Below, piece by piece: positions 996 to 48,149 of a DNA stretch of 64,000 bases. Made by a program: the position numbers and the translations under genes. Source of the stretch: Candidatus Peribacteria bacterium (GTDB taxonomy: Bacteria; Patescibacteriota; Gracilibacteria; Peribacterales; Peribacteraceae); the NCBI GenBank assembly GCA_023245865.1, contig JAHFJN010000001.1:486722-550721 (forward strand). Direction: 5' to 3'. Numbering within the stretch: the stretch's first letter is position 1; each line of letters starts with the position of its first letter. The notes under the pieces are model-generated. The model saw only the letters and a program-made list of their open reading frames with translations, searched no databases and was not told the origin of the DNA.

Positions 996-1048
996 GCGTC
1001 TGCATCTTACGAATACCTGCCACAAATTACCATCGTTTTCCCCTACTC

Positions 1049-1834: not shown

Positions 1835-1853
1835 TCACCACAGGGGGCAAATC

Positions 1854-2207: not shown

Positions 2208-2297
2208 AGATCGGAAAATACGGAAAACCTCGTTTACGATCACCGCTCTGCACCCACGTGGTACAGGGCGGTAATATGAGAATGCTACACTTTCCCC

Positions 2298-2570
2298 ATG
2301 CCCCACTACGTCTACCTTGCACGCTGCAGTGATGGCTCACTCTACGCAGGCACATGCATCGACCCCGCAGCACGCGAGGCGAAGCATAATACGGGCAAGG
2401 GCGCCAAGTACACACGCGGGCGGGGGCCGGTACGAATCATCTACATCAGAAAATGTCGCAGTTTACGTGATGCACGAAAGAAGGAAATGAAAATAAAAAA
2501 AATGCAGAAGCAAGAAAAGGAATTACTGATTTTGAAATTTCATGGAGGGGGCCATCGCCACGGGGGGTGA
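2298..2570 (+). CDS. GIY-YIG nuclease-domain protein (UPF0213-like)
   Basis: N-terminus YVYLARCSDGSLYAGTC...AREAKHN matches the GIY-YIG motif. The last ~6 codons run into structured repeat copy A. Confidence 0.8.
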   Translation: MPHYVYLARCSDGSLYAGTCIDPAAREAKHNTGKGAKYTRGRGPVRIIYIRKCRSLRDARKKEMKIKKMQKQEKELLILKFHGGGHRHGG

Positions 2571-2716
2571 AGGGGAAGCCCTGTCCTGCTAACAAGCAAT
2601 GACGAAACGAACTGCGAAGCCCTGGAGCAGTTCGTGAGGAATCACAGGGCGGGTGGAGGAGGATTGGCGATGGTGGCTTTCTTTGGTCCTTTCTTGTGCG
2701 GTAGACAAGAAAGGAC
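2552..2716 (+). repeat. structured repeat copy A (candidate ncRNA)
   Basis: Helices P1 2552-2560/2665-2673, P2 2578-2584/2644-2650, P3 2608-2615/2627-2634, 3' hairpin 2686-2697/2705-2716. Homologous to 4091-4246. Confidence 0.7.
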
Positions 2717-2741
2717 AAGAAAATCTCTGTACACTACCTCC

Positions 2742-3953: not shown

Positions 3954-4090
3954 GTACAAAATTTGTGCTAGACAGTTTTCCACATTCGAGGTCCCGGTGT
4001 CTTGCGTCGCGCGCGGACAGAGGTATTCTGATTGTGGAGAGGAGACGCTAGGAAATGTAAACCAATATTGTCATTCATTATTTTGGAGGC

Positions 4091-4246
4091 CCGCCGCCAC
4101 GGGGGGTGATGGGGAAGCCCTGTGCGAAGCTTCATGACGAAACAGACGCCGAAGCCTTGGAGGCGTCTGTGAGGAATGACAGGGCGAGCAGAGGAGGATT
4201 GGCGGCGGAGAATTTTTGGTTCTTTTGTTTCGTCTGACAAAAGAAC
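4091..4246 (+). repeat. structured repeat copy B (candidate ncRNA)
   Basis: P1 4091-4099/4200-4208, P2 4117-4123/4179-4185, P3 4143-4150/4162-4169, 3' hairpin 4219-4228/4237-4246. Lies in the convergent gap between the GT gene and ruvB. Confidence 0.7.
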
Positions 4247-4249
4247 AAA

Positions 4250-5290
4250 CTAGAACATCCCCTGCTGCCCCTGCGGCAGCTCCTTCCCCAATTTCTCATA
4301 GGTCTTCTTCGTCGCCATCCTCCCCTTCGGAGTTCGCTGCAAATAGCCTTGCTGCATCAGGAACGGCTCGTAGACATTCTCAATGGTTTCTTCTTCTTCG
4401 GCAAGGATCGCAGCGAGAGTCGAGAGTCCCACCGGCCCACCGGAAAATCCATCAATAAGAGTAGAGAGCAATTTGCGATCGGTTGCATCGAGCCCTTCAC
4501 GATCGATATCGAGCGACGCGAGCGTCTGCTCCACACACGGAAGATCAATGGAAGAAATACTGCTCACATGTGCGAAATCACGGATCGAACGCATCAAGCG
4601 GTTTGCGATACGCGGAGTTGCGCGGCTGCTGGTGGCTATCCGATCGGCGGCCTCGGGCAGGAGCGTGACCCCGAGGATACGCGCGGAGCGACGGACAATC
4701 GACTGCATCTCGGGGATTTCATAAAACATCAGTTTGAATTGATGCATGAATCTATCGCGTAAGGGGGCGCTCACGCTCCCCGCCTTCGTCGTCGCACCCA
4801 CGAGCGTAAAGGGTTTCAGGTTGAGCCGCACCGAGCGTGCGGTCGGGCCTTTCCCAATCATGATATCGAGCACGAAATCTTCCATCGCGCCGTAGAGCAC
4901 CTCTTCGACGACGGGTCGCAGTCTGTGGATCTCATCGATAAAGAGGACATCACCAACCCCGAGATTGGTGAGCAGCGCCGCCAGATCGCCCGGCTTCTCG
5001 ATGGCGGGGCCTGATGTGACTCGCACTTGAGCCCGCATCTCTTCCGCAATGATATGGGCGAGGGTGGTTTTGCCAAGGCCGGGCGGTCCATGGAGGAGCG
5101 TGTGGCCAAGAGGCTCGGTGCGAGATCGCGCCGCCTGCATGTGGATGACGAGGTGTTCTTTTATTTTTCCCTGACCGATGTATTCTCTGAGCAACCTCGG
5201 TCTGAGAGTCTCCTCGAGTTCGTCCTGCCGCCCCTTTTCCTTCACAGGCTGAAGGACAGGACTCGCCCGTGAGGTTCGCGACAGAGACAC
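4250..5290 (-). CDS. ruvB: Holliday junction branch-migration helicase RuvB
   Basis: GPPGLGKTTLA Walker A, DEIHRL, RuvB C-terminal domain. Start set at GTG 5290. ATG 5374 abuts the divergent ATG (CATATG) in AT-rich non-coding-looking sequence. Confidence 0.9.
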   Translation of the reverse strand: MSLSRTSRASPVLQPVKEKGRQDELEETLRPRLLREYIGQGKIKEHLVIHMQAARSRTEPLGHTLLHGPPGLGKTTLAHIIAEEMRAQVRVTSGPAIEKPGDLAALLTNLGVGDVLFIDEIHRLRPVVEEVLYGAMEDFVLDIMIGKGPTARSVRLNLKPFTLVGATTKAGSVSAPLRDRFMHQFKLMFYEIPEMQSIVRRSARILGVTLLPEAADRIATSSRATPRIANRLMRSIRDFAHVSSISSIDLPCVEQTLASLDIDREGLDATDRKLLSTLIDGFSGGPVGLSTLAAILAEEEETIENVYEPFLMQQGYLQRTPKGRMATKKTYEKLGKELPQGQQGMF

Positions 5291-5334
5291 GAGTTTTAGT
5301 CTAGCAGAAGCCTTAGAATCCAAGAAATGAGATA

Positions 5335-5363
5335 TTGACTTTTTATACAAAATAGTATTAAAT
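5335..5363 (+). promoter_or_regulatory. sigma70-like promoter (TTGACT-17-TTAAAT) for the 5375 ORF
   Basis: Hexamers read by eye; the -10 ends 11 nt before the ATG. Confidence 0.4.
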
Positions 5364-5374
5364 ACTTCTACCAT

Positions 5375-5977
5375 ATGTCGACCCGTTTGAAAATCATCGT
5401 CACGCTCGTCCTGCTCCTGCTGCTTGGTGGGCTTGGCGCTGCGGATTACTTCCTCTCGGGTGACGAGTACGCAGCGAAGCTCATAGAAAATCCTGACGCA
5501 TCGAGCGCATCCTCTTCTGAGAGCTATATACCGACCGTGGGCACGCAGAAGCAAAGCGGACCGGATGTCCTGAATGTGATCACTGCAGCCGGATACACGA
5601 CGCAGAAAAGTGAGGAGCTCAGCTTCCTTGCGCAGATCGCCGGCAGCGGTGCCAGTGTTTCTTCGGCAATCATTCTCAAAAATGACGATCGGGCGGGGTC
5701 CGTCACGTGGACCGATTCGCGTAACGTCAAGAATCAATTTATTGCCCTGAAGGAAGCGCTGCTCGGAGCATTTTCATCCAGAGTGTCGGACTTGCGCGAT
5801 GAGACGAAAGTGGAAACCGACTCCCCGGTCCGCAATATCCTCAGCTTCTCTGACCCTGCTTTAAGCGAAGAACGCCTCGTCTTTGTGCGGGTCCGCGAGC
5901 GCCTGTACGAATTCCACCTCGCGAAGGGGAAGGAGGACATGATGATAGGATTGATTGAGGAAATCACCACCAAGTAG
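5375..5977 (+). CDS. hypothetical membrane-anchored protein
   Basis: 200 aa with an N-terminal hydrophobic helix IIVTLVLLLLLGGLGA. No family recognised. Confidence 0.6.
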   Translation: MSTRLKIIVTLVLLLLLGGLGAADYFLSGDEYAAKLIENPDASSASSSESYIPTVGTQKQSGPDVLNVITAAGYTTQKSEELSFLAQIAGSGASVSSAIILKNDDRAGSVTWTDSRNVKNQFIALKEALLGAFSSRVSDLRDETKVETDSPVRNILSFSDPALSEERLVFVRVRERLYEFHLAKGKEDMMIGLIEEITTK

Positions 5978-5979
5978 GC

Positions 5980-6008
5980 TTGCACCAAGCCTTTCGATTC
6001 CCTAAGCT
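5980..6008 (+). promoter_or_regulatory. promoter-like TTGCAC-17-TAAGCT upstream of rplK
   Basis: The -10 ends 9 nt before ATG 6018 and no SD is present. The -35 overlaps hairpin AGGCTTG/CAAGCCT (5976-5992). Confidence 0.4.
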
Positions 6009-6017
6009 GCCGCCACT

Positions 6018-6440
6018 ATGGCTAAGAAAGTAAAGAAAGTCATCAAAGTGCAGGCACGCGGCGGACAGGCGAACCCTGCCCCCCCACTCGGACCCGCCCT
6101 CGGGCAAGCCGGGGTCGATATCCAGAAATTCTGCACGGAGTTCAATGCCAAGACGAAGGATCGTCAAGGGCAGGTGGTGCCCGTCGTACTCACGGTCTAT
6201 GAAGATCGCAGTTTTTCGTTCATCACCAAGCAAGCCCCCGCATCTGCGTTGATCATGGAGAAAGCGAAGATCCAGAAAGGGAGTGGAGAACCGAACAAGA
6301 ACAAGGTGGGTACTATTACAAAAGCGCAGCTCAAAGAGATCGCACAGACGAAAATGCCCGATCTCAATACGACCGATCTCGAGTCTGCGATGCTGTCGCT
6401 CGCGGGCACGGCGCGGAGTATGGGAGTGACGGTGGAATGA
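6018..6440 (+). CDS. rplK: 50S ribosomal protein L11
   Basis: 140 aa; ...[29 protein letters not shown]... is a canonical L11 N-terminal domain. Confidence 0.97.
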
Positions 6441-6487
6441 TGCCTCGATACAAAAAACATGTCATGTTTTTCACTCGGCATGACACA
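6441..6487 (+). repeat. intergenic module L (segments A and D' plus hairpin) directly after the rplK stop
   Basis: CCTCGATACA (6443-6452) and CACTCGGCATGACA (6472-6485) recur at 7155-7164 and 7237-7250. Confidence 0.8.
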
Positions 6488-6533
6488 TGTTGTCAATTCG
6501 TTTTTCGTGCGCACGCAATCCATTGCTCATATC

Positions 6534-7139
6534 ATGCCTCCCATGATGCCGATGTCGCCGACCATGATGTTTCAATCCGTAGGATTGCTCGGAGGGTTAT
6601 TCCTCCCGTTGATCGTCCTACTGCTGTTCGCAATACTCGTCCTTCCGGGCGTTCTTCATGGCTCAGGGAAGCCTCGCGCCATCGGTAAGGCCGCGTACAA
6701 CTACCTCGCTGCTTCCCTCGGAATCGTACTCATGAGTGCCGGCGGTCTGCCTGCCGTCTACGCGGTCTTTGCGCGTCAGCCGTTGACGACCGGTTCCTAT
6801 ACGGGGCTGCTGCTTGTGTTTGCGGTCGGCGGTCTCACATTCCTCTGGCACGATGCGCGACTCGAGAAGAGTGATAGCGTCTCGAAGGCGATTCCCGCCT
6901 CCCTCTTCTTCTTTACGTGGAAGTTTATCGGGCTCTTGGTGTCGCTCTTTGCCGGACTCTCCTTTGTACTGCGGATCATCGCGCAGACAGACACCGGTGC
7001 CTCCGACTGGTGGGTGATCCATCTGATCATGCTGCTCTACGGACTGCTGCTTTCTTGGTTCACGATCAGCGAAGAGAAACAAGCCATAAAACCTGCCCCG
7101 CATGCAGTACCGATGAAGACGGCGAAGGCAAAAAGGTAA
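6534..7139 (+). CDS. polytopic membrane protein of unknown function, inserted between rplK and rplA
   Basis: Several long hydrophobic stretches. Start ambiguous among clustered Met codons (6459 to 6552). Confidence 0.6.
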   Translation: MPPMMPMSPTMMFQSVGLLGGLFLPLIVLLLFAILVLPGVLHGSGKPRAIGKAAYNYLAASLGIVLMSAGGLPAVYAVFARQPLTTGSYTGLLLVFAVGGLTFLWHDARLEKSDSVSKAIPASLFFFTWKFIGLLVSLFAGLSFVLRIIAQTDTGASDWWVIHLIMLLYGLLLSWFTISEEKQAIKPAPHAVPMKTAKAKR

Positions 7140-7154
7140 TATATAGGCTCGGTG

Positions 7155-7250
7155 CCTCGATACAACCAGCTCTTCCCGTGTCATACCGAGTGTTTTTTGC
7201 GCACAAAAAATGTATCGAGGTACGGGAAGTGCTGGTCACTCGGCATGACA
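7155..7250 (+). promoter_or_regulatory. structured leader-like module R upstream of rplA
   Basis: Segments A, B, C, D, hairpin, A', C', B', D' give mutually crossing pairings. U-run at 7193-7198. Confidence 0.5.
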
Positions 7251-7372
7251 CACTTTACAGAGCTCTTTTTCCATGGCACACTGCCGCCGCTTTGTGGGAG
7301 TCCGCCTGAGGCGGACGCCAGCACCCTTCGATGCCTTCGGCACTCAGGGTAAACCACATTCCCCCCTTGACC

Positions 7373-8050
7373 ATGGCTCACGGAAAAAAATATCGCAATG
7401 CGAGCAAACTCGTCGATGCGACAAAGAAATACCCCCTCGCGGAAGCAACGGAGCTTTTGACGAAGCTTAGTACCACAACCTTCGATGCAACTGCGGAGGC
7501 GCACATTCGCATCAACGCCGACACCACCCAAGCCGATCAGCTCGTGCGGACGACTGTGAACTTGCCGCATGGCACGGGAAAGACAGTGCGTGTCGCAGCC
7601 TTCGTGCCGGACGACATGATCGACGATGCGAAGAAGGCAGGTGCGGACATTGCGGGCAATGACGACCTCGTAAAAGCAATCGAGAGCGGCGACATAAAAT
7701 TCGATGTCGCGGTGGCGGTGCCGATGATGATGAAGAGCCTCGGAAAAATCGCGAAGACACTCGGGCAAAAGGGATTGATGCCAAACCCCAAAGCGGGAAC
7801 CGTGACGGAGAATATTGGGAAGACCATCGAAGCGCTCAAAAAAGGCCGTATCGAATGCAAGATGGATAAATTCGGCATCATCCATGTCCCGTTCGGAAAA
7901 ATCAGCTTCGGCAGCAAGAAGCTCCAGGAAAACATGGAGGCCCTCCTGCAAGCCCTCGAAGAAGCGCGTCCCGCAGGCATCAAGAACAGCTATATCCTCA
8001 CTATGAGCCTTGCCCCCACGATGGGGCCGGGGGTGAAGGTGGCGCTGTAG
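7373..8050 (+). CDS. rplA: 50S ribosomal protein L1
   Basis: MAHGKKYRNASKLVD... is a canonical L1. Start is the internal ATG of the 7331 ORF. Confidence 0.97.
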   Translation: MAHGKKYRNASKLVDATKKYPLAEATELLTKLSTTTFDATAEAHIRINADTTQADQLVRTTVNLPHGTGKTVRVAAFVPDDMIDDAKKAGADIAGNDDLVKAIESGDIKFDVAVAVPMMMKSLGKIAKTLGQKGLMPNPKAGTVTENIGKTIEALKKGRIECKMDKFGIIHVPFGKISFGSKKLQENMEALLQALEEARPAGIKNSYILTMSLAPTMGPGVKVAL

Positions 8051-8053
8051 TAG

Positions 8054-8081
8054 TGGACAAATAAGAAATATATGATATATT
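8054..8081 (+). promoter_or_regulatory. promoter TGGACA-16-(TGa)TATATT
   Basis: The -10 ends 6 nt before ATG 8088, which predicts a leaderless transcript. Confidence 0.45.
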
Positions 8082-8087
8082 GGTTGC

Positions 8088-8486
8088 ATGGATACGCTTC
8101 ACAATCGAGAAGGGGCACGGGAAATGTTCCTGGAACAGTACCATTGGGCATGGACAGTCAGCGGACATCCCTGCACCGCCGATATTATGGAAACATTCGT
8201 GGCTGCTTTGGGAAATGAATTTCCACCGAATCTATCAATGCATTCCCTGTGGATTTTTATGTTTGGACATCTGCAACGCAATGATGTTCCGTTGAATTGG
8301 TTTTCTGAGTACGACCCAAACAAGCGTCATGCCCTCGAAGGGTCCGGGCATCCAATGGATTTTGATGAAACATTAGAAGAGATAGGGAAGATGATCAATC
8401 AGGGGATGAGAGAAGCCATAGCATCAAAAAAATCTCCCGCAGAGGAAGGCGACGCAGCGCAAAAAACCGATGAGGAACCCACCTGA
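8088..8486 (+). CDS. hypothetical protein
   Basis: 132-aa ORF with an acidic C-terminus. No family recognised. Confidence 0.55.
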   Translation: MDTLHNREGAREMFLEQYHWAWTVSGHPCTADIMETFVAALGNEFPPNLSMHSLWIFMFGHLQRNDVPLNWFSEYDPNKRHALEGSGHPMDFDETLEEIGKMINQGMREAIASKKSPAEEGDAAQKTDEEPT

Positions 8487-8487
8487 C

Positions 8488-9465
8488 TCAAGAACACAAA
8501 ATCGCCTTCGCCTCCGCGAACTTTTCCACTCGCACGAGCTTCTGTCGCATGTCCGACGCCCCCTCGAAGCCTTTCACGTAGCTGCTTAAGTGCCTGCGCA
8601 TTTCGAGCATCCCGCGCTGCTCGCCCTTGATACGCACTGCGAGCTCGCAGTGCTCGAGAATGAACGGAATTTTTTGCGCGAATGTCATCTGAACATCCGG
8701 CTGCTGATCGCTCACCGCTAACCGCTCACCGCTTCGCTCGCGAAGAGCGTCGCACACTTTTCGCATTATCCACGGATTCCCAAACGTCCCCCGCCCCACC
8801 ATCACTCCATCGAGATTGCCGATTTTTTCGACTGCGTCTGCCGCAGAGGTGATGTCGCCATTGCCGATCACGGGAACGCCCACATTCTTTTTGAGTTCGT
8901 AGATCTGCGTCCAGTCCGCCTTCCCCGTGAATTTGTCGCAAAAGCGTCGACCGTGGATCGCAAATGCCGCCGCCCCGGCCTCCTCCAATTTTTTACAAAA
9001 CGGAATCAGCGTCGTGGCGCTGTCCCACCCGAGCCGTGTCTTCACACTGACGGGGATAGAAACGGATTTGACGGTGGCGGCAACAAGTTCGGCCGCGAGA
9101 TCGGGTTTTTGAATGAGCGCCGCACCGTGGCACGATGAAACGACCTTCGCCGCGGGGCAGCCCATGTTGATGTCGATGCCGTCCGCGCCAAGCTGCTCGA
9201 TGATTTTCGCCGCCTCCAGAAAATGCTCCGGCTTGTGACCAAACACCTGTACGATGAACGGACGCTCGATTGTCGGATCAAACGCGAGCATCTTCATCGT
9301 CTTTTTGCCGCCAAACGCGAGTGCGTCGGTACTCAGGAATTCGGTGTAGACGACCACCTCGGGTGCGATTCGTTTGATCAACTGACGATACGATGCATCG
9401 GTGACGCCTGCCATAGGAGCAAGCGCGACAATCGGACGAGCAGTGGTGAACCAAGAAAATGTCAT
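8488..9465 (-). CDS. tRNA-dihydrouridine synthase
   Basis: LAPMAGVTD motif and Dus TIM-barrel-like sequence. Confidence 0.92.
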   Translation of the reverse strand: MTFSWFTTARPIVALAPMAGVTDASYRQLIKRIAPEVVVYTEFLSTDALAFGGKKTMKMLAFDPTIERPFIVQVFGHKPEHFLEAAKIIEQLGADGIDINMGCPAAKVVSSCHGAALIQKPDLAAELVAATVKSVSIPVSVKTRLGWDSATTLIPFCKKLEEAGAAAFAIHGRRFCDKFTGKADWTQIYELKKNVGVPVIGNGDITSAADAVEKIGNLDGVMVGRGTFGNPWIMRKVCDALRERSGERLAVSDQQPDVQMTFAQKIPFILEHCELAVRIKGEQRGMLEMRRHLSSYVKGFEGASDMRQKLVRVEKFAEAKAILCS

Positions 9466-9537: not shown

Positions 9538-9840
9538 ATGCCGACGGGTCCTGACATGACCATTCTCAAACAAACAAGCAACTGTGATTTTGTCACGGGC
9601 AAGATCAATGCAGCCTGCATTCCGGAATTTATCGGACACCTTGTCGTTGTGGTGTTTCAGGCGGTCTCGGTATTTTTCCTCATCAATGTGATGTACGCTG
9701 GGTATCAACTTGCGATCTCTCACATGAGCGAGGGTGACAAAGGCGCGGGAAAAGAACGGATCCGGTGGTCGATCATCGGTCTGGTCGTCTGCGTCTGCAC
9801 CTTCCTCATTCTTGAGCTCGTGCTCAGTAAAATCCTCTGA
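9538..9840 (+). CDS. TrbC/VirB2-like T4SS pilin-type small membrane protein
   Basis: 100 aa. Two Cys (C..x11..CIP), then two hydrophobic helices separated by a charged loop, as in CPR T4SS_pilin proteins. No signal peptide. Confidence 0.55.
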   Translation: MPTGPDMTILKQTSNCDFVTGKINAACIPEFIGHLVVVVFQAVSVFFLINVMYAGYQLAISHMSEGDKGAGKERIRWSIIGLVVCVCTFLILELVLSKIL

Positions 9841-11116: not shown

Positions 11117-11244
11117 GGTTTGGTTTGCTGTACATTTTGCAGAAATGTTCGACATTTTTGTGAATTACACCACGATTATTCATGGTGCACACTTCCTCTC
11201 AGGACCGTAACTATGGTACTGTGTAATGAACGCACCCCTCCTCT

Positions 11245-13863
11245 ATGCACCCCTTTGACCGCTTCACACCGAACGCGAAACTCGCTCTGCAAATTGCAGA
11301 GCAGGAGGCAAAGGCGATGCAGAGCAGCTACATCGGGACCGAGCATCTGCTGCTCGGCCTTCTCAGCATCCCAAAATCACTCGCATTCTCCATCTTCACC
11401 GGAGCCGGCGTCACGCTCGAAAACGTGCGGATTCTCCTCAAGGCAAGCAAAACCGCAAGTATTGAGGGCAAGCACGTGAAGCACGGCCTCTCGACCTTCC
11501 TCCACACCGTCATCGAGCAGGCGGTCGTGACCGCGCACAAGTTCCGGCATGCGAACGTCGGCACGGAGCACCTCCTGTATGCGCTCGTGTCCACGGGGAA
11601 GAATGCTGCGACACTGCTGCTGGAGAACATGCAGGTTGTGCCGGACGACTTGAAAATGCACATCGAGGAAATGTTCGGACAAATCTCGCAATTTCGTCAG
11701 CAAAATCGCAACGTCGAGCAGTCGCTCGAGGCGTTCTTTCACGGACTCCAGGGCGCGATCGCAGGGTTGCAGGGGGCGGGAGGGGCTCCGAGCGAACCTG
11801 AGGGTCTCAAGCGCAAGCGTGACGCAAACAGCAAAACACCCGCGCTCGATTACTTTACGGATGATCTCGTCGCGAAGGCAAAGACAGGCAAAATCGACCC
11901 GATCATCGGGCGCGACAAGGAAATCGAACGCATGATCCATATCCTCAACCGCAAGACCAAAAACAATCCCGTGCTCATCGGGGAGCCGGGCGTGGGCAAG
12001 ACCGCGATCGTCGAAGGCCTCGCGCAACGGATCTCCACGGGTCAGGTCCCAGACGCCCTCAAAAACAAGCGCGTGCTCATCTTGAACCTCGGCTCCATTG
12101 TCGCCGGCACGAAGTATCGCGGCGAGTTTGAGCAGCGATTTGAAGACATCATCAAAGAGGCCACGCAGAGCGACAAACAGATCATCCTCTTCATTGACGA
12201 AATCCACACGGTCGTGGGCGCCGGCTCCGCGGAAGGCTCGCTCGATGCGGCCAACATCCTGAAGCCCGCCCTCAGCCGAAGCACCATCCAAGTCATCGGC
12301 GCGACGACGCTCAACGAATACCGGACCATCGAGAAAGACCGCGCGCTCGAGCGCAGATTCCAGCCGATTCAAGTGGAGGAACCGACCCTCAAGGATACCG
12401 TGGAAATTCTCAAGGGCCTCAAGGCATCTTTCGAAAATTTCCATCACTTGAGCATCACCGACGATGCCCTGGAAGCGGCCGTTACCTTAAGTAATCGCTA
12501 CCTGACCGAACGCTTCCTGCCCGACAAGGCCATCGACGTTCTCGATGAAGCCTCCGCCGGCAAGAGCCTGCAGCACGCGCGCATCTCCCCGGAGCTCAAG
12601 TCCCTCGAGGACAAGTTGGAAATCCTCACCCTCAAGCAGCAGGAAGCCGTGAAGGAACAGAAATACCACGCCGCGCTCAAGCTCAAGCAGGAACAACAGG
12701 ATGTGAAGGAAAAGCGCGACCATATGCTCGCAAACAGCGACGGCGATCGCCGTTCCCCCGTACAGATCAACGGCGATGACATTGCCGCGGTCGTCGCGCG
12801 AATGACCGGCGTGCCCGTCATGAAGCTCCTCAAGCCCGAAGCCAAGCGCCTCGCGAACCTCGAGCACGTCCTGCGCCAGCACGTCATCGGCCAAGATGAC
12901 GCCATCCGCAAAGTTTCCCGCGCCATTCGCCGGAGCCGTGTCGGCATCGGCGACGTCAAACGCCCGATCGGTTCGTTCCTGTTCCTCGGCCCTACGGGTG
13001 TCGGCAAGACCGAGCTCGTCCGCACGCTCGCGCGCGAAGTGTTCCACCGCGAGGACGCACTGATCAAAATCGACATGTCCGAATTCATGGAACGTCACAA
13101 CGTTTCGCGTCTCATCGGCACCACGGCCGGCTACGTCGGCTACGAAGAGGGTGGACAGCTCACGGAGGCCGTGCGCCGCAAACCGTACTCGGTGGTCCTG
13201 TTTGATGAAGTGGAAAAAGCTCATCCGGAATTCTTCAACGTGCTCCTGCAAATTCTCGAGGATGGCGTTCTCACCGACGGCCAAGGTAAGCAAGTGGACT
13301 TCCGCAACACCATCATCGTCATGACAAGCAACGTCGGAGCCGAAAAACTCACGAAGCAGGCGGCGAAGATCGGATTCAAGCTTGAGGACGAGGCGAAGAA
13401 GGAGGAAACAGAGTACGAGGAAAAGCGGCAGGAAGTGATCAAGGAACTCAAAGAGCACCTCCGACCGGAGTTTTTGAACCGCATCGACCACATCATCGTC
13501 TTCAACGCCTTGAACCAAATTCACATTCGCAAGATCGTGAAGATGCACTTAGAAGAACTGGCCCTGCGCATGAAGGCGCAGGGCTACGCGATCGACGTCG
13601 ATCAGAAAGCGGTCAATCTGCTCGCCACCGTCGGATTCGACCCCGAGTATGGCGCTCGCCCCGTGCGGCGTGTCATCCAGGAACGCATCGAAGATGAAAT
13701 CGCCGAACACATGCTGAAAGGAATGTTCACTCCGGGCGACGTCATTCGCATCGTGCGCAAAGCGGGTGACAAGCTCGAGCTCCTCCATGGAGAAAAAGTC
13801 ACCGTAGAAGAGGCTCAAGGGCAACCGCAGCAGCAGGAAGCAGAGAGCGTGGAGGTGGCGTAA
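11245..13863 (+). CDS. clpC: ATP-dependent Clp protease ATP-binding subunit ClpC
   Basis: Clp_N repeats, two AAA+ modules ([16 protein letters not shown]), short middle domain, IGF loop (AAKIGFKLE). Confidence 0.93.
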
Positions 13864-13959: not shown

Positions 13960-14535
13960 ATGGCCATCGAAGCAATCAAAATCCCGCAGAACGTCCAGAT
14001 CGAGGACCGCATTATCGGTCCCCTGACCCTCCGACAGATCCTGCTCGTGAGCCTCGGCAACGGTTTCAGTTACGCGCTCTTCACGAGTATCTCGAAAGCC
14101 TACGGACTCGTGTCCATCCCGATTCAGATCCTCGTGTGGGTCCCGGGAGTACTGTCGATCGCGTTTGCATTCGTGCGCATCAATGATCTCAGTATGTTGC
14201 GGCTATGCATGCTGATGCTCGAGCGGATGAATAAACCGACAGTGCGTATTTGGGGACCGCGTCGCGGCATTATCATCAATATCCGCACCTTCTCCACGCC
14301 CGAAAAACAAGGTCTCTCTGACAAAGGAACCGCTGAGGATCTTTCCAAGGAGAAACACTTCGATGAAATCAGCGCGCTGCTCGACCGACCGATGGAAGGA
14401 GAATCTGCAGCGGTGAAACCGGTCGACCCAGCGCGGATCCAAGTATCCAAGCAATCGGAAACATCGATTGATGGCGTACAGCCGAAAGTCGCCGTGTCTG
14501 TCTTTTCGTCCCCCGCTCCCACCACGCACGTATGA
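13960..14535 (+). CDS. PrgI-family (VirB3-like) membrane protein
   Basis: N-terminus ...IEDRIIGPLTLRQILLVSLG... followed by two TM helices resembles PrgI of Gram-positive T4SS. Confidence 0.6.
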   Translation: MAIEAIKIPQNVQIEDRIIGPLTLRQILLVSLGNGFSYALFTSISKAYGLVSIPIQILVWVPGVLSIAFAFVRINDLSMLRLCMLMLERMNKPTVRIWGPRRGIIINIRTFSTPEKQGLSDKGTAEDLSKEKHFDEISALLDRPMEGESAAVKPVDPARIQVSKQSETSIDGVQPKVAVSVFSSPAPTTHV

Positions 14536-15245
14536 CTCCCAAGATCACCGATTCCGTCCGGCGCCGCAAAAAAAACGAAAGCGCGACCACGCAGCGATTC
14601 CTCCCTGTCGCGGAAATCCGCAACAACACCATTCTGCTCAAAAACGGGGGCATTCGCGCCGTGATCCAGGTCGAGGCGCTCAACTTCAACCTCAAGAGCG
14701 AACTCGAGCAGCAGGCGATCATCAGCGGCTACGGATCGTTCGTAAATACATTGAGCTTTCCTCTGCAGATCATCATCCGCTCGAGCAAGACGAACGTCGA
14801 CGAATACATCGATCGCGTGAAAGCGATCGGCAATAAGCAGGAGAACGCACTCCTCAAGAATCAGACGCTCACGTACGCCGCCTTCCTGCAGAAGCTGATT
14901 GAGATGGCGGACATCATGCAGAAACGCTTCTACGTCGTTGTGCCGGTGGATCACTCCGTCCGTCACAAAACCGTCATCGAGCAGTTCTTCGATTGGATCC
15001 ACCCGGACGACGCTGCGAGCAAGGTATCGGCACGCAACCACGAATTCACACATGGCCACGTACAACTCAACGAGCGGGTGGAGCTGATTTCCTCAGGGCT
15101 CAGCAACATCGGACTGCACTGCAAGCGCCTCCCCACGCGCGATCTCATCGCGCTGATGTACCAGACCTACAACCCCAAAACGAGCCAGACGCAGAAGATG
15201 CCGGCAGATATGGAGCAGTTGCATATGGAGAAAACAGCGCTATAA
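14532..15245 (+). CDS. VirB4/TraE N-terminal-domain-like protein lacking an ATPase domain
   Basis: ATGA overlap with the PrgI-like gene. ...FLPVAEIRNNTILLKNGGIRAVIQVEALNFNLKSELEQQAII... resembles the VirB4 N-terminal region. No Walker motifs. Confidence 0.5.
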   Translation: MTPKITDSVRRRKKNESATTQRFLPVAEIRNNTILLKNGGIRAVIQVEALNFNLKSELEQQAIISGYGSFVNTLSFPLQIIIRSSKTNVDEYIDRVKAIGNKQENALLKNQTLTYAAFLQKLIEMADIMQKRFYVVVPVDHSVRHKTVIEQFFDWIHPDDAASKVSARNHEFTHGHVQLNERVELISSGLSNIGLHCKRLPTRDLIALMYQTYNPKTSQTQKMPADMEQLHMEKTAL

Positions 15246-42961: not shown

Positions 42962-43027
42962 CTCCTTTCAAGGATCAATGTGGCGCAGAGATCCGCGCTA
43001 CTGTACAAGGAAAAAAAATATGCGCAA

Positions 43028-43055
43028 GTAGGGGCAAGGCATGCCTTGCCCCTAC
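43028..43055. repeat. 28-bp perfect palindrome GTAGGGGCAAGGCATGCCTTGCCCCTAC (copy 1)
   Basis: Overlaps the stop codon of the 908-aa gene and is flanked by A/T runs on both sides. May act as a terminator. Confidence 0.95.
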
Positions 43056-45778
43056 ATTTTTTTCTCCTTCTTTGCCTTCGCCTCGAGCATTCCTTTGCTG
43101 GGCGGAGGCACGCCGCCCGTCGCAATCAATCTCTTCTCAAGGTCTGCCATCTGCATCTTCTCCGGATCACTCAGGGGCTCCCCGAGAAATTCCTTTTTGC
43201 GCAGCGCATTGAACTCATTCATCCACATTTCGCGGTCTCTCCACGCACGGTATTCGTCCAATTTCATCCCCTTTGCCTTCGCTTTTTTTCTCTCCTCTTC
43301 CTCTTTTTCTTTGTTCTTCTCGGCCTTCTTTGCAACCACCTTCGCCTCCCCCGCCGATGCAGCCCACCGATGGATTTTTTCTTCCACAACGCTTCGTTTC
43401 TGAGCGTAACGTTCGCGGCTTAGGGTACGCAGAATCTCCACCCGCTTGTCATCCTGTTCGTACTTCGGTGGAGCCAGCGTTGCAACCGAGAACGGCTTGC
43501 TCGGCACACCATCGATCATGAGGCGCATGTACGCGTGGTACTTCGGGAGACTCAGAATGTCTTTCGCGCTCACCATTTCCTCAAATTGCAGACTGAGCTC
43601 TTCGGCATCGTCACTGCCCACTTGGAAACTGACCATCGATCCCACGTTGCCAAAGACCGCATCGCGCAAGCTGGTATCGTTGCCCGCGATCAAGAGCTGT
43701 CCGACATACTGGTGCGCAACGGTGAGGGCCAAACGATACTTGCGCGCTTCACTGAGAATCGTTGCAAACGATTTGGTTGCGAAGTTCTGGAATTCGTCGA
43801 CGTAGAGGTAGAAATCTTTGCGATCTTTTTCCGGAATATCGGCCCTGCTCATGGCATCGATCTGAAATTTCGTGACGAGCATCGAGCCGAGGAACGCGGA
43901 GGTGTCTTCGCCGAGTTTTCCTTTGCTGAGGTTCACGAGGACAATCTTGCCCGTGTCCATCGCATGGCGCACGTCAAGAGTGCTTCGCACCTGACCGATG
44001 ATGTTACGAATCAGCGGCGTCGTGAGCAATTGTCCGATCTTGTTCTGGATCGCCGCGACAGCCTCGGTGCGGTACTTGTCGCTCCAGCCGGCATATTCCG
44101 TCTCCCAGAAACTCTTCACAACCGGATCCGTGATGTTTGCGACCATTTTTGCGCAGTACGCGCTGTCACCAAACATCCGCAGAATCCCAAGCATGGACGA
44201 ACCTTCGTTTTCGAGCAGAGCCAAAAGGGTATTGCGGAGAATGTGCTCCATGCGTCCGCTGAAGGCTTCCGGCCAGAGCTTGGTAAACACGCTCATGAGC
44301 CCTGAGCAAATCAGCGAGCGCTGATCGGGATCCTTGCTTTCGAGCATGTTGAAAGAGACAGGGTAATCGCGGTCCGCAGGGTCAAAAAGAATCACGTCGT
44401 TGCTGCGACTCCTTGGAATGAACTGCAAAATGGATTCGATCAAATCTCCGTGCGGATCGATGACGGCAATCCCCTTGCCGCTATGGATGTCGGAATAAAT
44501 CATGTTTTCGAGGATGGTGGTTTTTCCCATGCCCGTTTTTCCGATCACGTACATGTGGCGACGGCGGTCATCGGGGCGGATGCCGAACTGCTGGCGATGG
44601 CCGTGGAACAGTGATTCACCGAGGATCGTCAGATTCTCCTTCGTATCAGCCTGCCCTGAGCTTGTGGAATGGGTCACATCTGGAATCGGCAAATTCACCG
44701 GCGGCTCGAGCTTTTTGGCCGTCACCCAATCCATGTTGGAAGTTTTCACGAGAATGTTCGGAATATGCCAGAGGGTCGCCACCTCTTCGGCGGAGAGCAC
44801 GTAGGGGCTCCGTGTGAAGTGCTGAGGAATGGCGGAGCCAACGACGGGATCAGTCATATGAAAGCCGTTACTTTGGGGCAGTGTGAATTGACGGAAGCTC
44901 CCTGCGATCTCGCGGACTTTCGCGAGCGCTTCGCTCTGGTACTTCGCCGGTGTGATCACGCTCACGCGAACGGTCGTGAGGAAGAGGAGTCTGTTCACCT
45001 TATCCACCGCACCGCTGAGCTTGTCCTCGCGCTCGTGGCTGCGCATGCTGACCTTGCTTGGGTCATCGGCGTGTGAATCCTCTGTCCCCTCTCCCGTGAA
45101 GAGCGATATATTCATCTTCGGCTGGAGCCCCGAAAACCATACCCTCCACCCACCGAGCAACATATCGATGGGAAAGAAGAGAAATCTGCGCCACCCGCGT
45201 GCTAAGTGCACCGCGGCAAACAGCCGTGCGTACGCGTCCCAGTGCTTGGAGATGCCCTTCTCGAGGAACGGCAAAAATTTGAGCGCACGCTTGCGGAAAC
45301 GCGGCGCCATCGGATGCAACAAAATCTGCACGTGCCCCCGCATGGCGGGATAGGGATAACGCACGAGCGTCGAGGTAACGCCCGCGATCGTGTCGATGTT
45401 TTGCCGGGTCATCAAGTCGGTGAACTGCGGATAGCGTTTGATGGGGAAAACTTCCGGTTCGTGGAGCGTCAGCTCCGCGGACACAACGATTTCACCATCC
45501 TTCGGCTCAAATAAATCCGGTGACTCCATGTCAATTTCTGCATCGGGGAATTGTCCGTAGAGTTGACTCTCAATAAGAGGCGCCGCTTCAGCATTGGAGC
45601 GCGTGAAGAGTCCGATTTTCCCCTCCGCAAGGCCGATTTCCAGACTCAGCATGTCACGCTTGCCGTGGAGGCTATGGAGAGCCGAGAGTGCGGTCTCGGT
45701 CATTAAGGGCCCGCGCGACGCACTGACCTCATCGGGGTCAGGCAGGCTCGGCCGAATGCGGAGGAGAACAGCACTCAT
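43052..45778 (-). CDS. VirD4/TraD (type IV coupling protein)-like P-loop NTPase
   Basis: HMYVIGKTGMGKTT Walker A followed by AVIDPHGD, then YVDEFQNF Walker B and ...ARKYRLALTVAHQYVGQL... (TraG-D_C-like). ~390-aa N-terminal domain of unknown type and a Lys/Glu-rich tail. Confidence 0.65.
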   Translation of the reverse strand: MSAVLLRIRPSLPDPDEVSASRGPLMTETALSALHSLHGKRDMLSLEIGLAEGKIGLFTRSNAEAAPLIESQLYGQFPDAEIDMESPDLFEPKDGEIVVSAELTLHEPEVFPIKRYPQFTDLMTRQNIDTIAGVTSTLVRYPYPAMRGHVQILLHPMAPRFRKRALKFLPFLEKGISKHWDAYARLFAAVHLARGWRRFLFFPIDMLLGGWRVWFSGLQPKMNISLFTGEGTEDSHADDPSKVSMRSHEREDKLSGAVDKVNRLLFLTTVRVSVITPAKYQSEALAKVREIAGSFRQFTLPQSNGFHMTDPVVGSAIPQHFTRSPYVLSAEEVATLWHIPNILVKTSNMDWVTAKKLEPPVNLPIPDVTHSTSSGQADTKENLTILGESLFHGHRQQFGIRPDDRRRHMYVIGKTGMGKTTILENMIYSDIHSGKGIAVIDPHGDLIESILQFIPRSRSNDVILFDPADRDYPVSFNMLESKDPDQRSLICSGLMSVFTKLWPEAFSGRMEHILRNTLLALLENEGSSMLGILRMFGDSAYCAKMVANITDPVVKSFWETEYAGWSDKYRTEAVAAIQNKIGQLLTTPLIRNIIGQVRSTLDVRHAMDTGKIVLVNLSKGKLGEDTSAFLGSMLVTKFQIDAMSRADIPEKDRKDFYLYVDEFQNFATKSFATILSEARKYRLALTVAHQYVGQLLIAGNDTSLRDAVFGNVGSMVSFQVGSDDAEELSLQFEEMVSAKDILSLPKYHAYMRLMIDGVPSKPFSVATLAPPKYEQDDKRVEILRTLSRERYAQKRSVVEEKIHRWAASAGEAKVVAKKAEKNKEKEEEERKKAKAKGMKLDEYRAWRDREMWMNEFNALRKKEFLGEPLSDPEKMQMADLEKRLIATGGVPPPSKGMLEAKAKKEKKM

Positions 45779-46485
45779 GTACTTCGCAGGAGATCAGCAA
45801 CCAATTCGAGCGCCACCGTGTCATACGCGTAGTCCATCCGCATCGGCCCGATGATGCCAATCGCCCCGGTTTCCCCGCGCAGTTGATAGCGGGTCACGAT
45901 CAAGCTGCAACTCTGGATTTCGGGGAGCACATGCTCGTTACCGATGTAGCAGCGCACATCATCGGTGAGCTCAATGTGTTCGAGGAGATCGCCGATCTTA
46001 TGCTCGAGAACTTCCACAATCCCGCTCGCGAGCAGCGGATGAGTCTGGAACTCCGGCTGGCGGAGCGTATTTGCGAGGCCAAGGTAGTACACGCGGTCCT
46101 TGTGCGGCACGGTCGCAAACGCAACGTTCGTGACCATCTGCGAGAGCAAGCTGACCGCCTCATACACGCGCTCCTGGTCCTTGCGGCGAAAATACAGATC
46201 TTTCAGTGTCTCAAATTTCTGCCGGACTCGCTGCTCCTGCAATGATGGCTCCATGAACTCTTTCACGTACATCTGATACCCTTTCGCAGTCGGAATCCGC
46301 CCCGCCGAAACGTGCGGCTGCTCGAGGAAGCCTTCCTCGCCAAGATAGCGCATTTCATTGCGAATGGTGGCACAGCTCACGCAGAAACTCCCGGCCTCCA
46401 GAATATGATGGGAGCCGATGGGTGTTGCTGTTTGGATGAATTGGTCAATGATCGCAGCCAGCAGCTTCGCCTGACGAGTATTCAT
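45775..46485 (-). CDS. hrcA: heat-inducible transcription repressor HrcA (short form)
   Basis: ...PIGSHHILE...CATIRNEMRYLGEEGFLEQPHVSAGRIPTAKGY... Start at ATG 46485, downstream of CIRCE. Stop overlaps the next start (ATGA). Confidence 0.85.
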   Translation of the reverse strand: MNTRQAKLLAAIIDQFIQTATPIGSHHILEAGSFCVSCATIRNEMRYLGEEGFLEQPHVSAGRIPTAKGYQMYVKEFMEPSLQEQRVRQKFETLKDLYFRRKDQERVYEAVSLLSQMVTNVAFATVPHKDRVYYLGLANTLRQPEFQTHPLLASGIVEVLEHKIGDLLEHIELTDDVRCYIGNEHVLPEIQSCSLIVTRYQLRGETGAIGIIGPMRMDYAYDTVALELVADLLRST

Positions 46486-46496
46486 GGTTCTCAGTA

Positions 46497-46521
46497 TAGC
46501 ACTCATCGCTGGTGAGTGCTA
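46497..46521. promoter_or_regulatory. CIRCE operator (TAGCACTC-N9-GAGTGCTA)
   Basis: Matches 8+8 of the 9+9 consensus TTAGCACTC-N9-GAGTGCTAA. Lies 12 nt upstream of the hrcA ATG. Confidence 0.85.
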
Positions 46522-47429: not shown

Positions 47430-48149
47430 TTATTGTTCAGAATAGTTCACCTTCGCAGGAGGTTGAGCATACAGATGTTTATAGTGATTGCCACTGAGCA
47501 ATTCATACAGGAATTCACACCGCCGCACGGCCCCAAGAGCCAGATGATGCATATTTGCAAGACGATTCCATCGATGAAACTGCCTCTCTGAGCTGATGTG
47601 TGGATAGCAAGGATGCGGCTCGAACACAGACATAACCGGATAAGCTGCTATATCAATCGAGGACAGCAGGCCAATCTTCTCGAGAGCCTTACGAAGGGTT
47701 GCGATCACGCGCAACATATGAAATTGTTCTGCAACAATATTCGTTCTTGGAAATTGCCCATCCTGTAGGAGAGCCACCGTATTACGCGCATTTTCAATAG
47801 TGTTGTACGACGGATCTAGTTTGTAACGATCGTAAAATTCCGCATCACAATCGGTGAGAACACGCTCTGAAACCGAAGCAGGGAAATGATCCGCAATATA
47901 GTGCTTCATACGCTGCGCCTCTTGAAGACTGCCGTGAATCCCATCACCTCGCTTCCCTTTTTCACCGCAATTACCTCCCGCAATGAAGAGCAATGCGTCA
48001 TGGTTGATCTGTACAAGCTGTGCTGCACGGTGCGCATTGCCTCTGCTTAAATCATTAACCGTGACTTTATCCTGTGCAGATCCGTCTCCCACAGTATACG
48101 TGAGGCTACCGAAATCCTGCAATTTGCCGTAAAGACTGCGCTTTCCCAT
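47430..48149 (-). CDS. DUF218/YdcF-like protein
   Basis: ...LLFIAGGN...SYNTIENARNT...VAEQFHMLRV... parallels DUF218 motifs. Confidence 0.65.
   Translation of the reverse strand: MGKRSLYGKLQDFGSLTYTVGDGSAQDKVTVNDLSRGNAHRAAQLVQINHDALLFIAGGNCGEKGKRGDGIHGSLQEAQRMKHYIADHFPASVSERVLTDCDAEFYDRYKLDPSYNTIENARNTVALLQDGQFPRTNIVAEQFHMLRVIATLRKALEKIGLLSSIDIAAYPVMSVFEPHPCYPHISSERQFHRWNRLANMHHLALGAVRRCEFLYELLSGNHYKHLYAQPPAKVNYSEQ

Follow-up and report, generated by a model that had tools for sequence, protein, structure and literature searches.

In Peribacteria, a group of ultra-small groundwater bacteria, the repressor gene hrcA and the gene of a large ATPase related to type IV coupling proteins (T4CPs) appear to form a lineage-specific bicistronic operon that is autoregulated by HrcA via the CIRCE operator, a reading to which we assign a probability of roughly 0.7. 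The window, i.e. the whole stretch of DNA that was analysed, comprises 64,000 nt of Candidatus Peribacteria bacterium (GCA_023245865.1, contig JAHFJN010000001.1, 486,722-550,721, forward strand). On its minus strand, CIRCE is followed by hrcA, the 908-aa ATPase gene and a terminator-like hairpin, in this order:

46497..46521, minus strand: CIRCE operator, TAGCACTC-ACCAGCGAT-GAGTGCTA (two arms with an N9 spacer), read from the sequence and present as a conserved block in relatives
46493..46501, minus strand: putative extended -10 element, TGC-TATACT, fused to the right CIRCE arm, read from the sequence
45775..46485, minus strand: hrcA, short form of 236 aa with a winged-helix N-domain and a C-terminal HrcA domain (Pfam, TIGR00331, PDB 1STZ)
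45775..45778, minus strand: hrcA/ATPase junction ATGA, shared by the hrcA stop (TGA) and the ATPase start (ATG), read from the sequence
43052-45778, minus strand: ATPase ORF, 908 aa, read from the sequence
44729..45778, minus strand: N-terminal domain of the ATPase, DUF8128, ~aa 1-350, no transmembrane segment (PF26449 in homologues; AF2 model)
43454..44641, minus strand: T4CP-type NTPase domain with an all-alpha insertion, ~aa 380-775 (Pfam, sequence and Foldseek matches)
44519-44542, minus strand: Walker A, GKTGMGKT (motif read)
43781-43810, minus strand: Walker B, YLYVDEFQNF (motif read)
43055..43453, minus strand: Lys/Glu-rich helical C-terminal tail, ~aa 776-908 (AF2: long helices 795-907)
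43010..43055, minus strand: intrinsic-terminator-like hairpin that overlaps the ATPase stop codon and is followed by a U8 run, the predicted operon end (RNA fold)
11245-13863, plus strand: clpC-type Clp/Hsp100 AAA+ gene (window annotation)

Boundaries of the proposed operon and conservation of the junction

Re-reading of the sequence showed the ATGA overlap at 45775-45778 and the 908-aa ORF behind it, both described in the original prediction, to be correct. The only strong terminator of the operon follows the ATPase gene: the hairpin has a 12-bp stem and a dG of -32.9 kcal/mol (z = -4.5), and 0/200 shuffles fold as well. Inside hrcA, a promoter scan of the sequence found no sigma-70-like promoter.

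The CIRCE-hrcA-ATPase arrangement was found in seven Peribacteria genome loci. In addition, an unrelated scan of metagenomes for TATAMT-fused CIRCE sites yielded 25 contigs on which hrcA is followed by the ATPase gene and eight more contigs with a Peribacteria-type hrcA that were ended by the contig edge (~33 in total). The original prediction had considered that the adjacency might be unique to this genome; it is conserved across Peribacteria, and its recurrence points to a lineage-wide feature rather than a single-genome accident. The hrcA-ATPase junction measures between -4 and +36 nt in 25/32 related loci, and the remaining 7/32 have palindrome-rich spacers of 89-250 nt that could hold terminators or promoters. 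Over its full length, the ATPase is 62-76% identical among relatives, a degree of conservation between those of GyrA and DnaX and more in keeping with a core gene than with a mobile element, and the genes around it are housekeeping genes (gyrA, rpmE, glyA, dnaX).

Adjacency can also arise passively, and we regard this as an unlikely alternative. Under such a scenario, a rearrangement in the ancestor of Peribacteria would have cost hrcA its partners grpE-dnaK and placed it before a housekeeping ATPase gene to which it bears no relation; the overlap would reflect compaction, most expression of the ATPase would stem from internal promoters or read-through, and control by HrcA would be functionally meaningless. 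Compact genomes often have unrelated genes overlapping by 4 nt, so two neighbours do not necessarily act together. The placement beside hrcA is also limited to a single clade, whose ATPases are at least 59% identical; in other Peregrinibacteria, Gracilibacteria and other CPR, the ATPase homologue follows different genes, i.e. rplI-ruvX, an LCP-domain gene or a Sigma70_r4/HARE-HTH gene. The long spacers of the 7/32 loci point in the same direction, as does the DUF218-like gene upstream of the operon, whose stop codon precedes CIRCE by 9 nt and is not followed by a terminator, so that read-through is possible. However, the arrangement and its tight junction have survived divergence down to 61-63% protein identity, whereas the neighbouring genes otherwise vary—two DUF218-like genes of the window, for instance, are absent in the relative L002—and an internal promoter was not detected. 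Moreover, a gene placed at a 4-nt overlap behind a CIRCE-controlled gene, with no terminator between the two, would be co-regulated whatever the origin of the arrangement. If the adjacency were synteny only, the locus would merit a modest annotation note.

The ATPase, its family and type IV secretion

Judged by sequence and by structural model, the ATPase is a member of the VirD4/TrwB (T4CP) superfamily. This agrees with the original prediction, which had proposed a translocase of the T4CP/FtsK-HerA superfamily from the motifs GKTGMGKTT, AVIDPHGD and DEFQNF, all of which are present. Its T4CP-like assignment is borne out by a Pfam match to TrwB_AAD_bind above cutoff (PF10412; 2.9e-8, 33.5 bits, cutoff 20.5, aa 402-720), whereas the TraG-D_C-like segment that it also described stays below cutoff (0.002, 18.5 bits, cutoff 22). 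Sequence matches include TrwB (2.2e-5) and DotL, and Foldseek searches with the ATPase model returned TrwB (~1e-9, target TM-score 0.51-0.54) as well as DotL, Cag-beta and HerA.

The N-terminal ~390 aa, previously held to be unassignable, can be attributed to DUF8128, with both PF26449 and PF10412 precomputed for homologues of the ATPase. When this domain alone (AF2 model, pLDDT 82) was used for structure searches, the only significant PDB matches were to the N-terminal half of TrwK/VirB4 (E 1e-4 to 3.5e-3), a weak resemblance with a TM of 0.33-0.40. TrwK/VirB4 was likewise the top full-length Foldseek match (E 2e-10, 872 aligned columns, TM 0.34-0.40, rmsd 8-12 A); VirB4 family models in Pfam and NCBIfam gave nothing beyond 18 bits for the ATPase. 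The C-terminal tail is conserved among Peribacteria homologues and has no Pfam match. No membrane anchor was found in the protein, the 19-residue Kyte-Doolittle mean peaking at 1.09 over the whole sequence and at 0.62 in the first 90 aa, and because hrcA abuts the ATPase start codon, an upstream N-terminal extension is impossible.

With T4CPs such as TrwB of R388, TraD, VirD4, DotL and Cag-beta, the ATPase shares the RecA-like nucleotide-binding domain, Walker A/B and the all-alpha insertion, and with TraD in particular a C-terminal extension. Unlike these proteins, it has no N-terminal transmembrane helices, carries an extra N-domain of 350-390 aa, is not linked to relaxase or T4SS genes and reaches at most 51 bits against curated T4CP equivalog models with cutoffs of 250-650 bits (TIGR03743, 51 vs 366; TIGR03754, 35 vs 648; NF045973, 32 vs 250). 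Its two-part build, a ~400-aa N-domain followed by a C-terminal ATPase, resembles that of VirB4/TrwK, but the TM-scores are low and, by sequence, T4CPs are the nearer relatives of the ATPase domain. Most likely, the protein is an NTP-powered motor that translocates or remodels either DNA or unfolded protein.

The wider family comprises 22,999 representative clusters from many CPR phyla, and DUF8128 and the TrwB-like ATPase occur across these phyla in both fused and split (adjacent-gene) forms. Most members carry a hydrophobic anchor at the N-terminus of the DUF8128 module; the hrcA-linked subfamily has none. A Sigma70_r4/HARE-HTH gene lies upstream in 40/78 family loci, making it a typical rather than universal partner, and is absent from the window and from hrcA-type loci. 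Given their shared properties—a spread over Patescibacteria phyla and a location that is rarely beside virB4—the family most likely corresponds to the orphan T4CP (VirD4-type) homologues described recently (Microb Genom 2025, PMC12102498). Of 5,713 T4CP homologues in Patescibacteria, just 148 are near virB4, T4CP genes often being encoded far from it, and the authors raised the possibility of exaptation (PMC12102498). Compared with these orphans, the hrcA-linked Peribacteria subfamily has lost both the N-terminal anchor and the upstream Sigma70_r4/HARE-HTH partner. A link between the orphan homologues and HrcA/CIRCE was not found in the searchable literature.

The original prediction had gone further and suggested a stress-induced T4SS-like or DNA-uptake machine, in which the ATPase would be a working coupling protein or VirB4-like energiser of a Patescibacteria T4SS and HrcA would render secretion or DNA transfer stress-inducible. 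A T4CP-family motor with a VirB4-like N-domain would suit this role, and the same genome encodes small T4SS-like proteins (a VirB2-like pilin, PrgI/VirB3-like and TraC/TrsD-like) 28 kb from the ATPase, the genes of which are conserved in Peribacteria. Distance would be no obstacle where T4CP genes are often remote from virB4 (PMC12102498), and CIRCE control of a secretion-system effector has a precedent in Chlamydiota (PMC12038028). Yet the ATPase lacks the membrane anchor of canonical T4CPs and of most family members and falls far below the cutoff of every curated T4CP equivalog model. Over 10 kb to its left and right there is no virB4, relaxase or other T4SS gene, and neither virB4 nor a relaxase was seen in the annotated parts of the window (about 1-23 kb and 33-64 kb). 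Furthermore, the T4SS-like genes 28 kb away have their own predicted promoter and no CIRCE, with prgI and the traC-like gene placed after the clpC terminator, and the scarcity of virB4 neighbours among Patescibacteria homologues, together with the exaptation already raised (PMC12102498), speaks against a secretory role. With no anchor and no T4SS genes within 10 kb, the proposed machine was an overstatement, and we consider it improbable.

The operator, the short HrcA and its regulon

The near-consensus CIRCE at 46497-46521 is confirmed: it deviates from the 27-nt consensus at two positions, both of them outermost bases, with 0.01 matches expected by chance, and no second CIRCE-like site exists in the 64 kb window even at five mismatches allowed. 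The gap to hrcA, given earlier as 12 nt, is 11 nt, with the hrcA start at ATG 46485. An alternative start at ATG 46506, called by the ORF finder, was rejected, as it falls within CIRCE and homologues do not have it. Across the seven Peribacteria genome loci, whose encoded proteins are 61-76% identical, the operator/-10 block is the only conserved intergenic sequence, and CACTC...GA.TGCTA is the sole conserved stretch in otherwise unalignable upstream regions. The hrcA ATG lies 7 nt past the extended -10 element, and the same design recurs in 7/7 loci, with TGCTATAAT/TATACT/TACACT/TAAAAT followed by 6-9 nt and the start codon. By its sequence, the element is a putative promoter, and the 7-nt distance predicts an hrcA mRNA that is leaderless or nearly so. 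That the inverted repeat belongs to the upstream gene as a terminator or stem-loop, or is a palindrome arisen by chance, is highly improbable: although it lies 9 nt past the stop of the DUF218-like gene, what is conserved in its arms is the CIRCE consensus sequence and not just the pairing, its 9-nt spacer is constant in length and variable in sequence, there is no T-run, its distance to the hrcA start is fixed even where the upstream gene differs, and chance would hardly supply such a match within one window.

HrcA matches Pfam PF01628 (7e-24, 85 bits, cutoff 22), and PDB 1STZ aligns with its residues 1-120, i.e. the N-domain (1.8e-17). Alignment with HrcAs of 328-342 aa revealed that ~100 central residues are missing, which is why the protein scores just below the cutoff of TIGR00331 (175 vs 197 bits). 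This short form is conserved in Peribacteria at 235-238 aa, and, given the missing residues and the score under the TIGR00331 cutoff, the regulation of HrcA by GroEL may differ.

In the HrcA/CIRCE class I regulon, the controlled operons are hrcA-grpE-dnaK-dnaJ and groESL in Bacillus subtilis and hrcA-grpE-dnaK in Chlamydia. Peribacteria share with this regulon the winged-helix repressor, a TTAGCACTC-N9-GAGTGCTAA operator overlapping its own promoter, a predicted autoregulation that results from hrcA being the first gene of the operon and, in sister genomes, a proteostasis gene, clpC, with CIRCE. They differ in that HrcA is ~100 aa shorter, the mRNA appears leaderless and the downstream cistron encodes a T4CP-like ATPase, not grpE-dnaK. 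The original prediction had found no chaperone gene in the operon or window. The operon indeed contains no chaperone or proteostasis gene and the window no GroEL, GroES or DnaK gene, but clpC is present at 11245-13863. The claim of that prediction that the ATPase stands "instead of chaperone genes" is not supported either: clpC has its own CIRCE in 5/5 related Peribacteria, suggesting that HrcA still governs proteostasis genes and that the ATPase joined the regulon without displacing them. The genome of the window itself has a degenerate CIRCE at clpC, which indicates that the regulon is evolutionarily labile.

The CIRCE-controlled T3SS effector Wcw_0502/CTL0271 of Chlamydiota offers a parallel, being a secretion-related, non-chaperone gene that HrcA/CIRCE controls in a bacterium which depends on a host and has a reduced genome (PMC12038028). 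In contrast, the Peribacteria case, read from sequence, concerns a motor ATPase within the hrcA operon itself.

A candidate stress-inducible motor

If hrcA and the ATPase gene do form an HrcA-autoregulated operon, its regulation may proceed as follows. CIRCE would span the promoter, with its right arm fused to the extended -10 box, and transcription would probably start at or beside the hrcA ATG, so that the mRNA would be leaderless. In the unstressed cell, the short HrcA would sit on CIRCE and block RNA polymerase, presumably kept active by GroEL as in characterised systems. Titration of the chaperonin by misfolded proteins would then lift repression, leading to co-transcription of hrcA and the ATPase gene; the ATGA overlap would couple translation of the ATPase to that of hrcA, and the hairpin past the ATPase stop would end transcription. 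The product would be a soluble, anchor-less member of a Patescibacteria-wide family whose proteins combine DUF8128, a module like the VirB4 N-domain, with a hexameric NTPase module of VirD4/TrwB type. Judging from the placement of its gene behind CIRCE and hrcA, this motor is probably switched on by protein-damaging stress, and the prediction is that the ATPase is co-expressed with the proteotoxic-stress response.

The locus also illustrates how a minimal genome may rewire a highly conserved stress circuit, with a shortened HrcA, a seemingly leaderless promoter-operator fusion and, at least at the loci seen, CIRCE before clpC in place of the textbook operons. Patescibacteria (CPR) possess thousands of VirD4-like ATPase genes without an assigned role or a link to T4SS genes, and the conserved place behind hrcA/CIRCE provides the first regulatory context for one subfamily of these orphan T4CPs. 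It is tempting, if speculative and on present evidence doubtful, to propose that an anchor-less VirD4/VirB4-like translocase was recruited into the class I heat-shock regulon as a T4SS-independent, stress-inducible motor that might remove or transport damaged proteins or, during stress, work on DNA. If true, HrcA would control a heat-shock protein of a new type, and the thousands of orphan T4CP homologues in Patescibacteria would gain a first hint of their function.

Operator, probable promoter and boundaries of the hrcA operon

Our analysis gives good support to a conserved operon, autoregulated by HrcA through CIRCE, in which the second cistron encodes an ATPase resembling the VirD4/TrwB-type coupling proteins (T4CPs) of type IV secretion systems (T4SSs). 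The unit and the genes directly upstream of it are:

46497-46521, minus strand: CIRCE operator
45775-46485, minus strand: hrcA, 236 aa
43052-45778, minus strand: T4CP-like ATPase, 908 aa
46530-47396, minus strand: DUF218-like gene, member of a tandem pair between rpmE and hrcA
47430-48149, minus strand: DUF218-like gene, other member of the pair

Direct reading of the minus strand from 46521 to 46497 gives TAGCACTC-ACCAGCGAT-GAGTGCTA, which is the sole CIRCE in the 64 kb when a 27-nt consensus is searched with up to 3 mismatches. Both of its 2 mismatches to the consensus concern the outermost bases, the chance expectation is 0.01, and no further site emerges in the 64-kb window even with 5 mismatches allowed. 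A stretch of 11 nt (TACTGAGAACC) separates the operator from the hrcA ATG at 46485; the original prediction of a CIRCE just upstream of a short hrcA thus stands, save for the distance, which it had given as 12 nt.

The -10 box directly abuts the right CIRCE arm (GAGTGC-TATACT in the window), the corresponding sequences of relatives are TGCTATAAT, TACACT or TAAAAT, and in the window as well as in relatives the element is a TGn extended -10. In all seven genome loci (7/7), the hrcA start codon follows 6-9 nt past this hexamer, a distance into which a Shine-Dalgarno sequence cannot fit. On the simplest reading, the hrcA mRNA would therefore be leaderless or near-leaderless and its promoter covered by CIRCE. 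The same, presumably leaderless, design is seen at clpP in the lineage comprising the retrieved loci L090 (1638-2252), L199 (1670-2284) and L145, where a CIRCE fused to TATACT lies upstream and the ATG follows 7 nt past the -10 box. The DUF218-like gene upstream of hrcA ends 9 nt before CIRCE and lacks a terminator, meaning that read-through into the hrcA operon is possible unless stopped by bound HrcA.

The hrcA ORF matches Pfam HrcA at 7e-24 and reaches 175 bits on TIGR00331, slightly under the 197-bit cutoff. An alternative ORF of 243 aa proposed by the ORF finder starts at an ATG within CIRCE; since homologous HrcAs have no ATG in the repeat and begin with MN(T/E)RQ, the start is placed at 46485. 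The protein comprises a winged-helix N-domain (1STZ aligned over residues 1-120) and a C-terminal HrcA domain, and alignment with the 328-342-aa HrcAs encoded beside grpE-dnaK reveals that ~100 central residues are missing. This short form is kept in Peribacteria, and a 235-aa HrcA encoded beside grpE in another lineage (L140) illustrates that shortness is not proof of lost HrcA function.

At the junction, the TGA of hrcA overlaps the ATG of the 908-aa ORF, confirming the ATGA overlap described previously, and no sigma-70-like promoter was found inside hrcA. At the other end, a GC-rich 12-bp hairpin across the ATPase stop codon, followed by U8 (dG -32.9 kcal/mol, z -4.5), probably marks the end of the transcription unit. 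The surrounding gene order (gyrA, rpmE, two DUF218-like genes, hrcA, ATPase, dgkA, glyA, dnaX) is that of a chromosomal housekeeping neighbourhood, without signs of mobile elements, and an Rfam scan of the window returned five tRNAs and no other RNA element.

Conservation in Peribacteria

The closest proteins to those of the window are annotated as Candidatus Peribacteria or Peregrinibacteria (CPR/Patescibacteria), and exact copies are also found on metagenome contigs of up to ~1.07 Mb. In the complete Peribacteria genome CP082927.1, the order gyrA-rpmE-hrcA-ATPase...glyA is retained with an ATPase 76% identical, and the two DUF218-like genes are absent from the corresponding position. The region upstream of CIRCE is thus variable, while the CIRCE-hrcA-ATPase unit stays.

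Whether hrcA and the ATPase travel together in related genomes was addressed by two scans, and both show that the pair is kept within Peribacteria. A scan of a genome collection (one genome per species) with the ATPase family alignment as query yielded 80 loci from many CPR phyla. In all Peribacteria loci with an ATPase at least 59% identical and enough upstream sequence (L007-L010, L017), hrcA lies immediately upstream, which is never the case in the remaining loci. In all hrcA-linked loci, a CIRCE-like repeat lies upstream of hrcA, with its end 9-11 nt from the start codon, and an alignment of seven upstream regions is conserved only in a CACTC-N9-GA.TGCTA.A.T block and the start codon. An independent metagenome scan for GCACTC-N9-GAGTGCTATAMT identified at least 120 contigs. 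Among the matches listed, hrcA (59-73% identical) is followed by the ATPase in at least 25 contigs, and at least 8 further contigs contain a Peribacteria-type hrcA ending at the contig edge. The other matches listed are classical CIRCE targets (groESL, hrcA-grpE-dnaK, rpoH-like, dnaJ, hsp20, clpP and htpG), and those examined belong to other lineages, e.g. L198, which is PVC-like in appearance. Across 371 kb of Peribacteria loci, no second CIRCE, GroEL or DnaK was found.

Between Peribacteria genomes, the full-length ATPase is 62-76% identical, as compared to 68-89% for GyrA and 51-60% for DnaX, so it behaves as a core gene. Stop-to-start spacing between hrcA and the ATPase gene lies within -4 to +36 nt for 25 loci out of 32; the other seven have palindrome-rich spacers of 89-250 nt. 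The inserts in these spacers (L007, 3560-3700; L124, L169, L115, L147, L175 and L156) are long imperfect palindromes, for instance TGACAACTGACAATGTACAATGGACAACG...CGTTGTCAGTTGTCCATTGTCCATTGTAC, and may represent REP- or MITE-like elements or attenuators.

The ATPase and its family across CPR

All ATPase motifs named in the original prediction were found again. The motor domain (~aa 380-775) matches Pfam TrwB_AAD_bind above cutoff as well as DUF87/HerA, resembles TrwB and DotL by sequence, and has a predicted fold (pLDDT 78) that matches TrwB, DotL, Cag-beta and HerA. Matches to curated T4CP equivalog models are confined to the P-loop surroundings and lie far under their cutoffs. The N-terminal 350-390 aa, previously left unassigned, correspond to Pfam DUF8128 in precomputed annotations. 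When this domain is modelled alone (pLDDT 82), nothing in the PDB matches it significantly apart from the N-terminal half of TrwK/VirB4 (E between 1e-4 and 3.5e-3, TM-scores 0.33-0.40), a weak resemblance, and TrwK/VirB4 is likewise the top structural match of the full-length model. Sequence and models together suggest a weakly VirB4-like architecture combined with a T4CP-like motor sequence. A comparison of DUF8128 with the window's TraC/TrsD-like protein by hhalign detected no homology (probability 0.3), profile against sequence being a weak test. A helical structure is predicted for the Lys/Glu-rich tail, which is kept within Peribacteria; no transmembrane segment was found in the 908-aa protein.

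Homologues are also encoded by phages: aa 400-820 strongly match (E 2.6e-62) the C-terminal half of phrog_5156, an 824-position PHROG phage protein family, which points to phage proteins of comparable length with homology to the ATPase domain in their C-terminal half.

At E 1e-3 or better, the ATPase family comprises 22,999 clusters at 50% identity, ranging over Peregrinibacteria, Gracilibacteria, Saccharibacteria and many Parcubacteria and Microgenomates groups. It is very likely what a 2025 survey counted when it reported 5,713 VirD4-type T4CP homologues in 2,918 Patescibacteria genomes, 148 of them near virB4 (PMC12102498).

Outside the hrcA-linked clade, the DUF8128 part (~450 aa) and the ATPase (~570 aa) are usually separate proteins, or else fused, and a hydrophobic anchor usually stands at the start of the DUF8128 part. 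A gene for a ~360-aa protein with Sigma70_r4 and HARE-HTH domains lies ahead of the DUF8128/ATPase genes, often after secD-secF, in 40 of 78 CPR loci (within L018-L086, e.g. L023 3621-8082 and L075 about 4800-8616). To our knowledge, this conserved association between the ATPase and a DNA-binding protein has not been described. An HMM search found no such partner gene in the window or the Peribacteria loci; in the Peribacteria subfamily, anchor and partner have both been lost.

Other genomic contexts of the family include rplI-ruvX and yebC-ruvC-ruvA-ruvB, the names ruvC and ruvB resting on translated ORFs and clustering with annotated genes. Locus L020, a CPR genome mislabelled Gammaproteobacteria, is the only one of ~80 with DnaK-region genes upstream: at about 400-5600, a DnaK gene identified by search lies directly upstream, on the same strand, of the Sigma70_r4/HARE-HTH, DUF8128 and ATPase genes, flanked by ORFs called GrpE-like and DnaJ-like by size alone. 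Heat-shock genes and the ATPase family are here found side by side a second time, independently, albeit in a single case, and with 1 of ~80 loci a general DnaK linkage can be rejected.

clpC, T4SS-like genes and the cargo of the HrcA regulon

At a distance of 28 kb from the ATPase, the window contains a string of genes whose order is kept in Peribacteria and which has no virB4 adjacent to it:

9538-9840, plus strand: VirB2-like pilin gene (PF18895)
within the string, plus strand: AI-2E-family permease gene
11245-13863, plus strand: ClpC-type AAA+ gene (clpC) with Clp_N repeats, two AAA modules and an IGF loop
13960-14535, plus strand: PrgI/VirB3-like gene (prgI)
14532-15245, plus strand: TraC/TrsD-like gene

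The presence of clpC contradicts the earlier statement that no chaperone gene occurs elsewhere in the window. Moreover, all five related Peribacteria (5/5) have a CIRCE, with 2-3 mismatches, upstream of clpC:

L209, 6554-6580
L210, 6627-6653
L211, 2559-2585
L213, 785-811
L214, 2693-2719

A proteostasis gene is thus still under HrcA control in the Peribacteria lineage. Upstream of the window's own clpC, no CIRCE is found at up to 5 mismatches; a weak CACCA-N10-TGGTG repeat at 11165-11191, whose arms have apparently changed symmetrically, appears to be its degenerate remnant.

The idea that both CIRCE operons are T4SS-related was rejected, as clpC and prgI are set apart by a distinct extended -10 promoter of the TGnTAnAAT type, seen in the window and in each of four relatives examined (4/4), and by a terminator hairpin, seen in three of these relatives, and prgI retains this promoter, with no CIRCE, where it sits apart from clpC. 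Both prgI and the traC-like gene lie outside the clpC unit.

Stress induction of the hrcA-ATPase operon would be expected by analogy with established HrcA/CIRCE knowledge. The original prediction went further and proposed the stress-induced deployment of a T4SS-like or DNA-uptake machine, which is possible, albeit with weak support: the motor does belong to the right superfamily and the genome does have T4SS-like genes, but the ATPase lacks an anchor and is unlinked to those genes, which are themselves not under CIRCE. An exapted role outside the T4SS, as a translocase induced by stress, is just as possible, and passive synteny in a compact genome is a real alternative. In Chlamydiota, CIRCE control of secretion-related genes other than chaperones sets a precedent (PMC12038028). 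Our literature search returned no paper connecting HrcA or CIRCE with CPR, Peribacteria, DUF8128 or the ATPase family, and chaperones are not mentioned in the Peribacteria genome paper.

What the window presents is an HrcA regulon whose conserved cargo is unusual. The Peribacteria are an uncultured lineage, and the CIRCE-hrcA link offers a regulatory entry point, amenable to testing, to an abundant CPR protein family.
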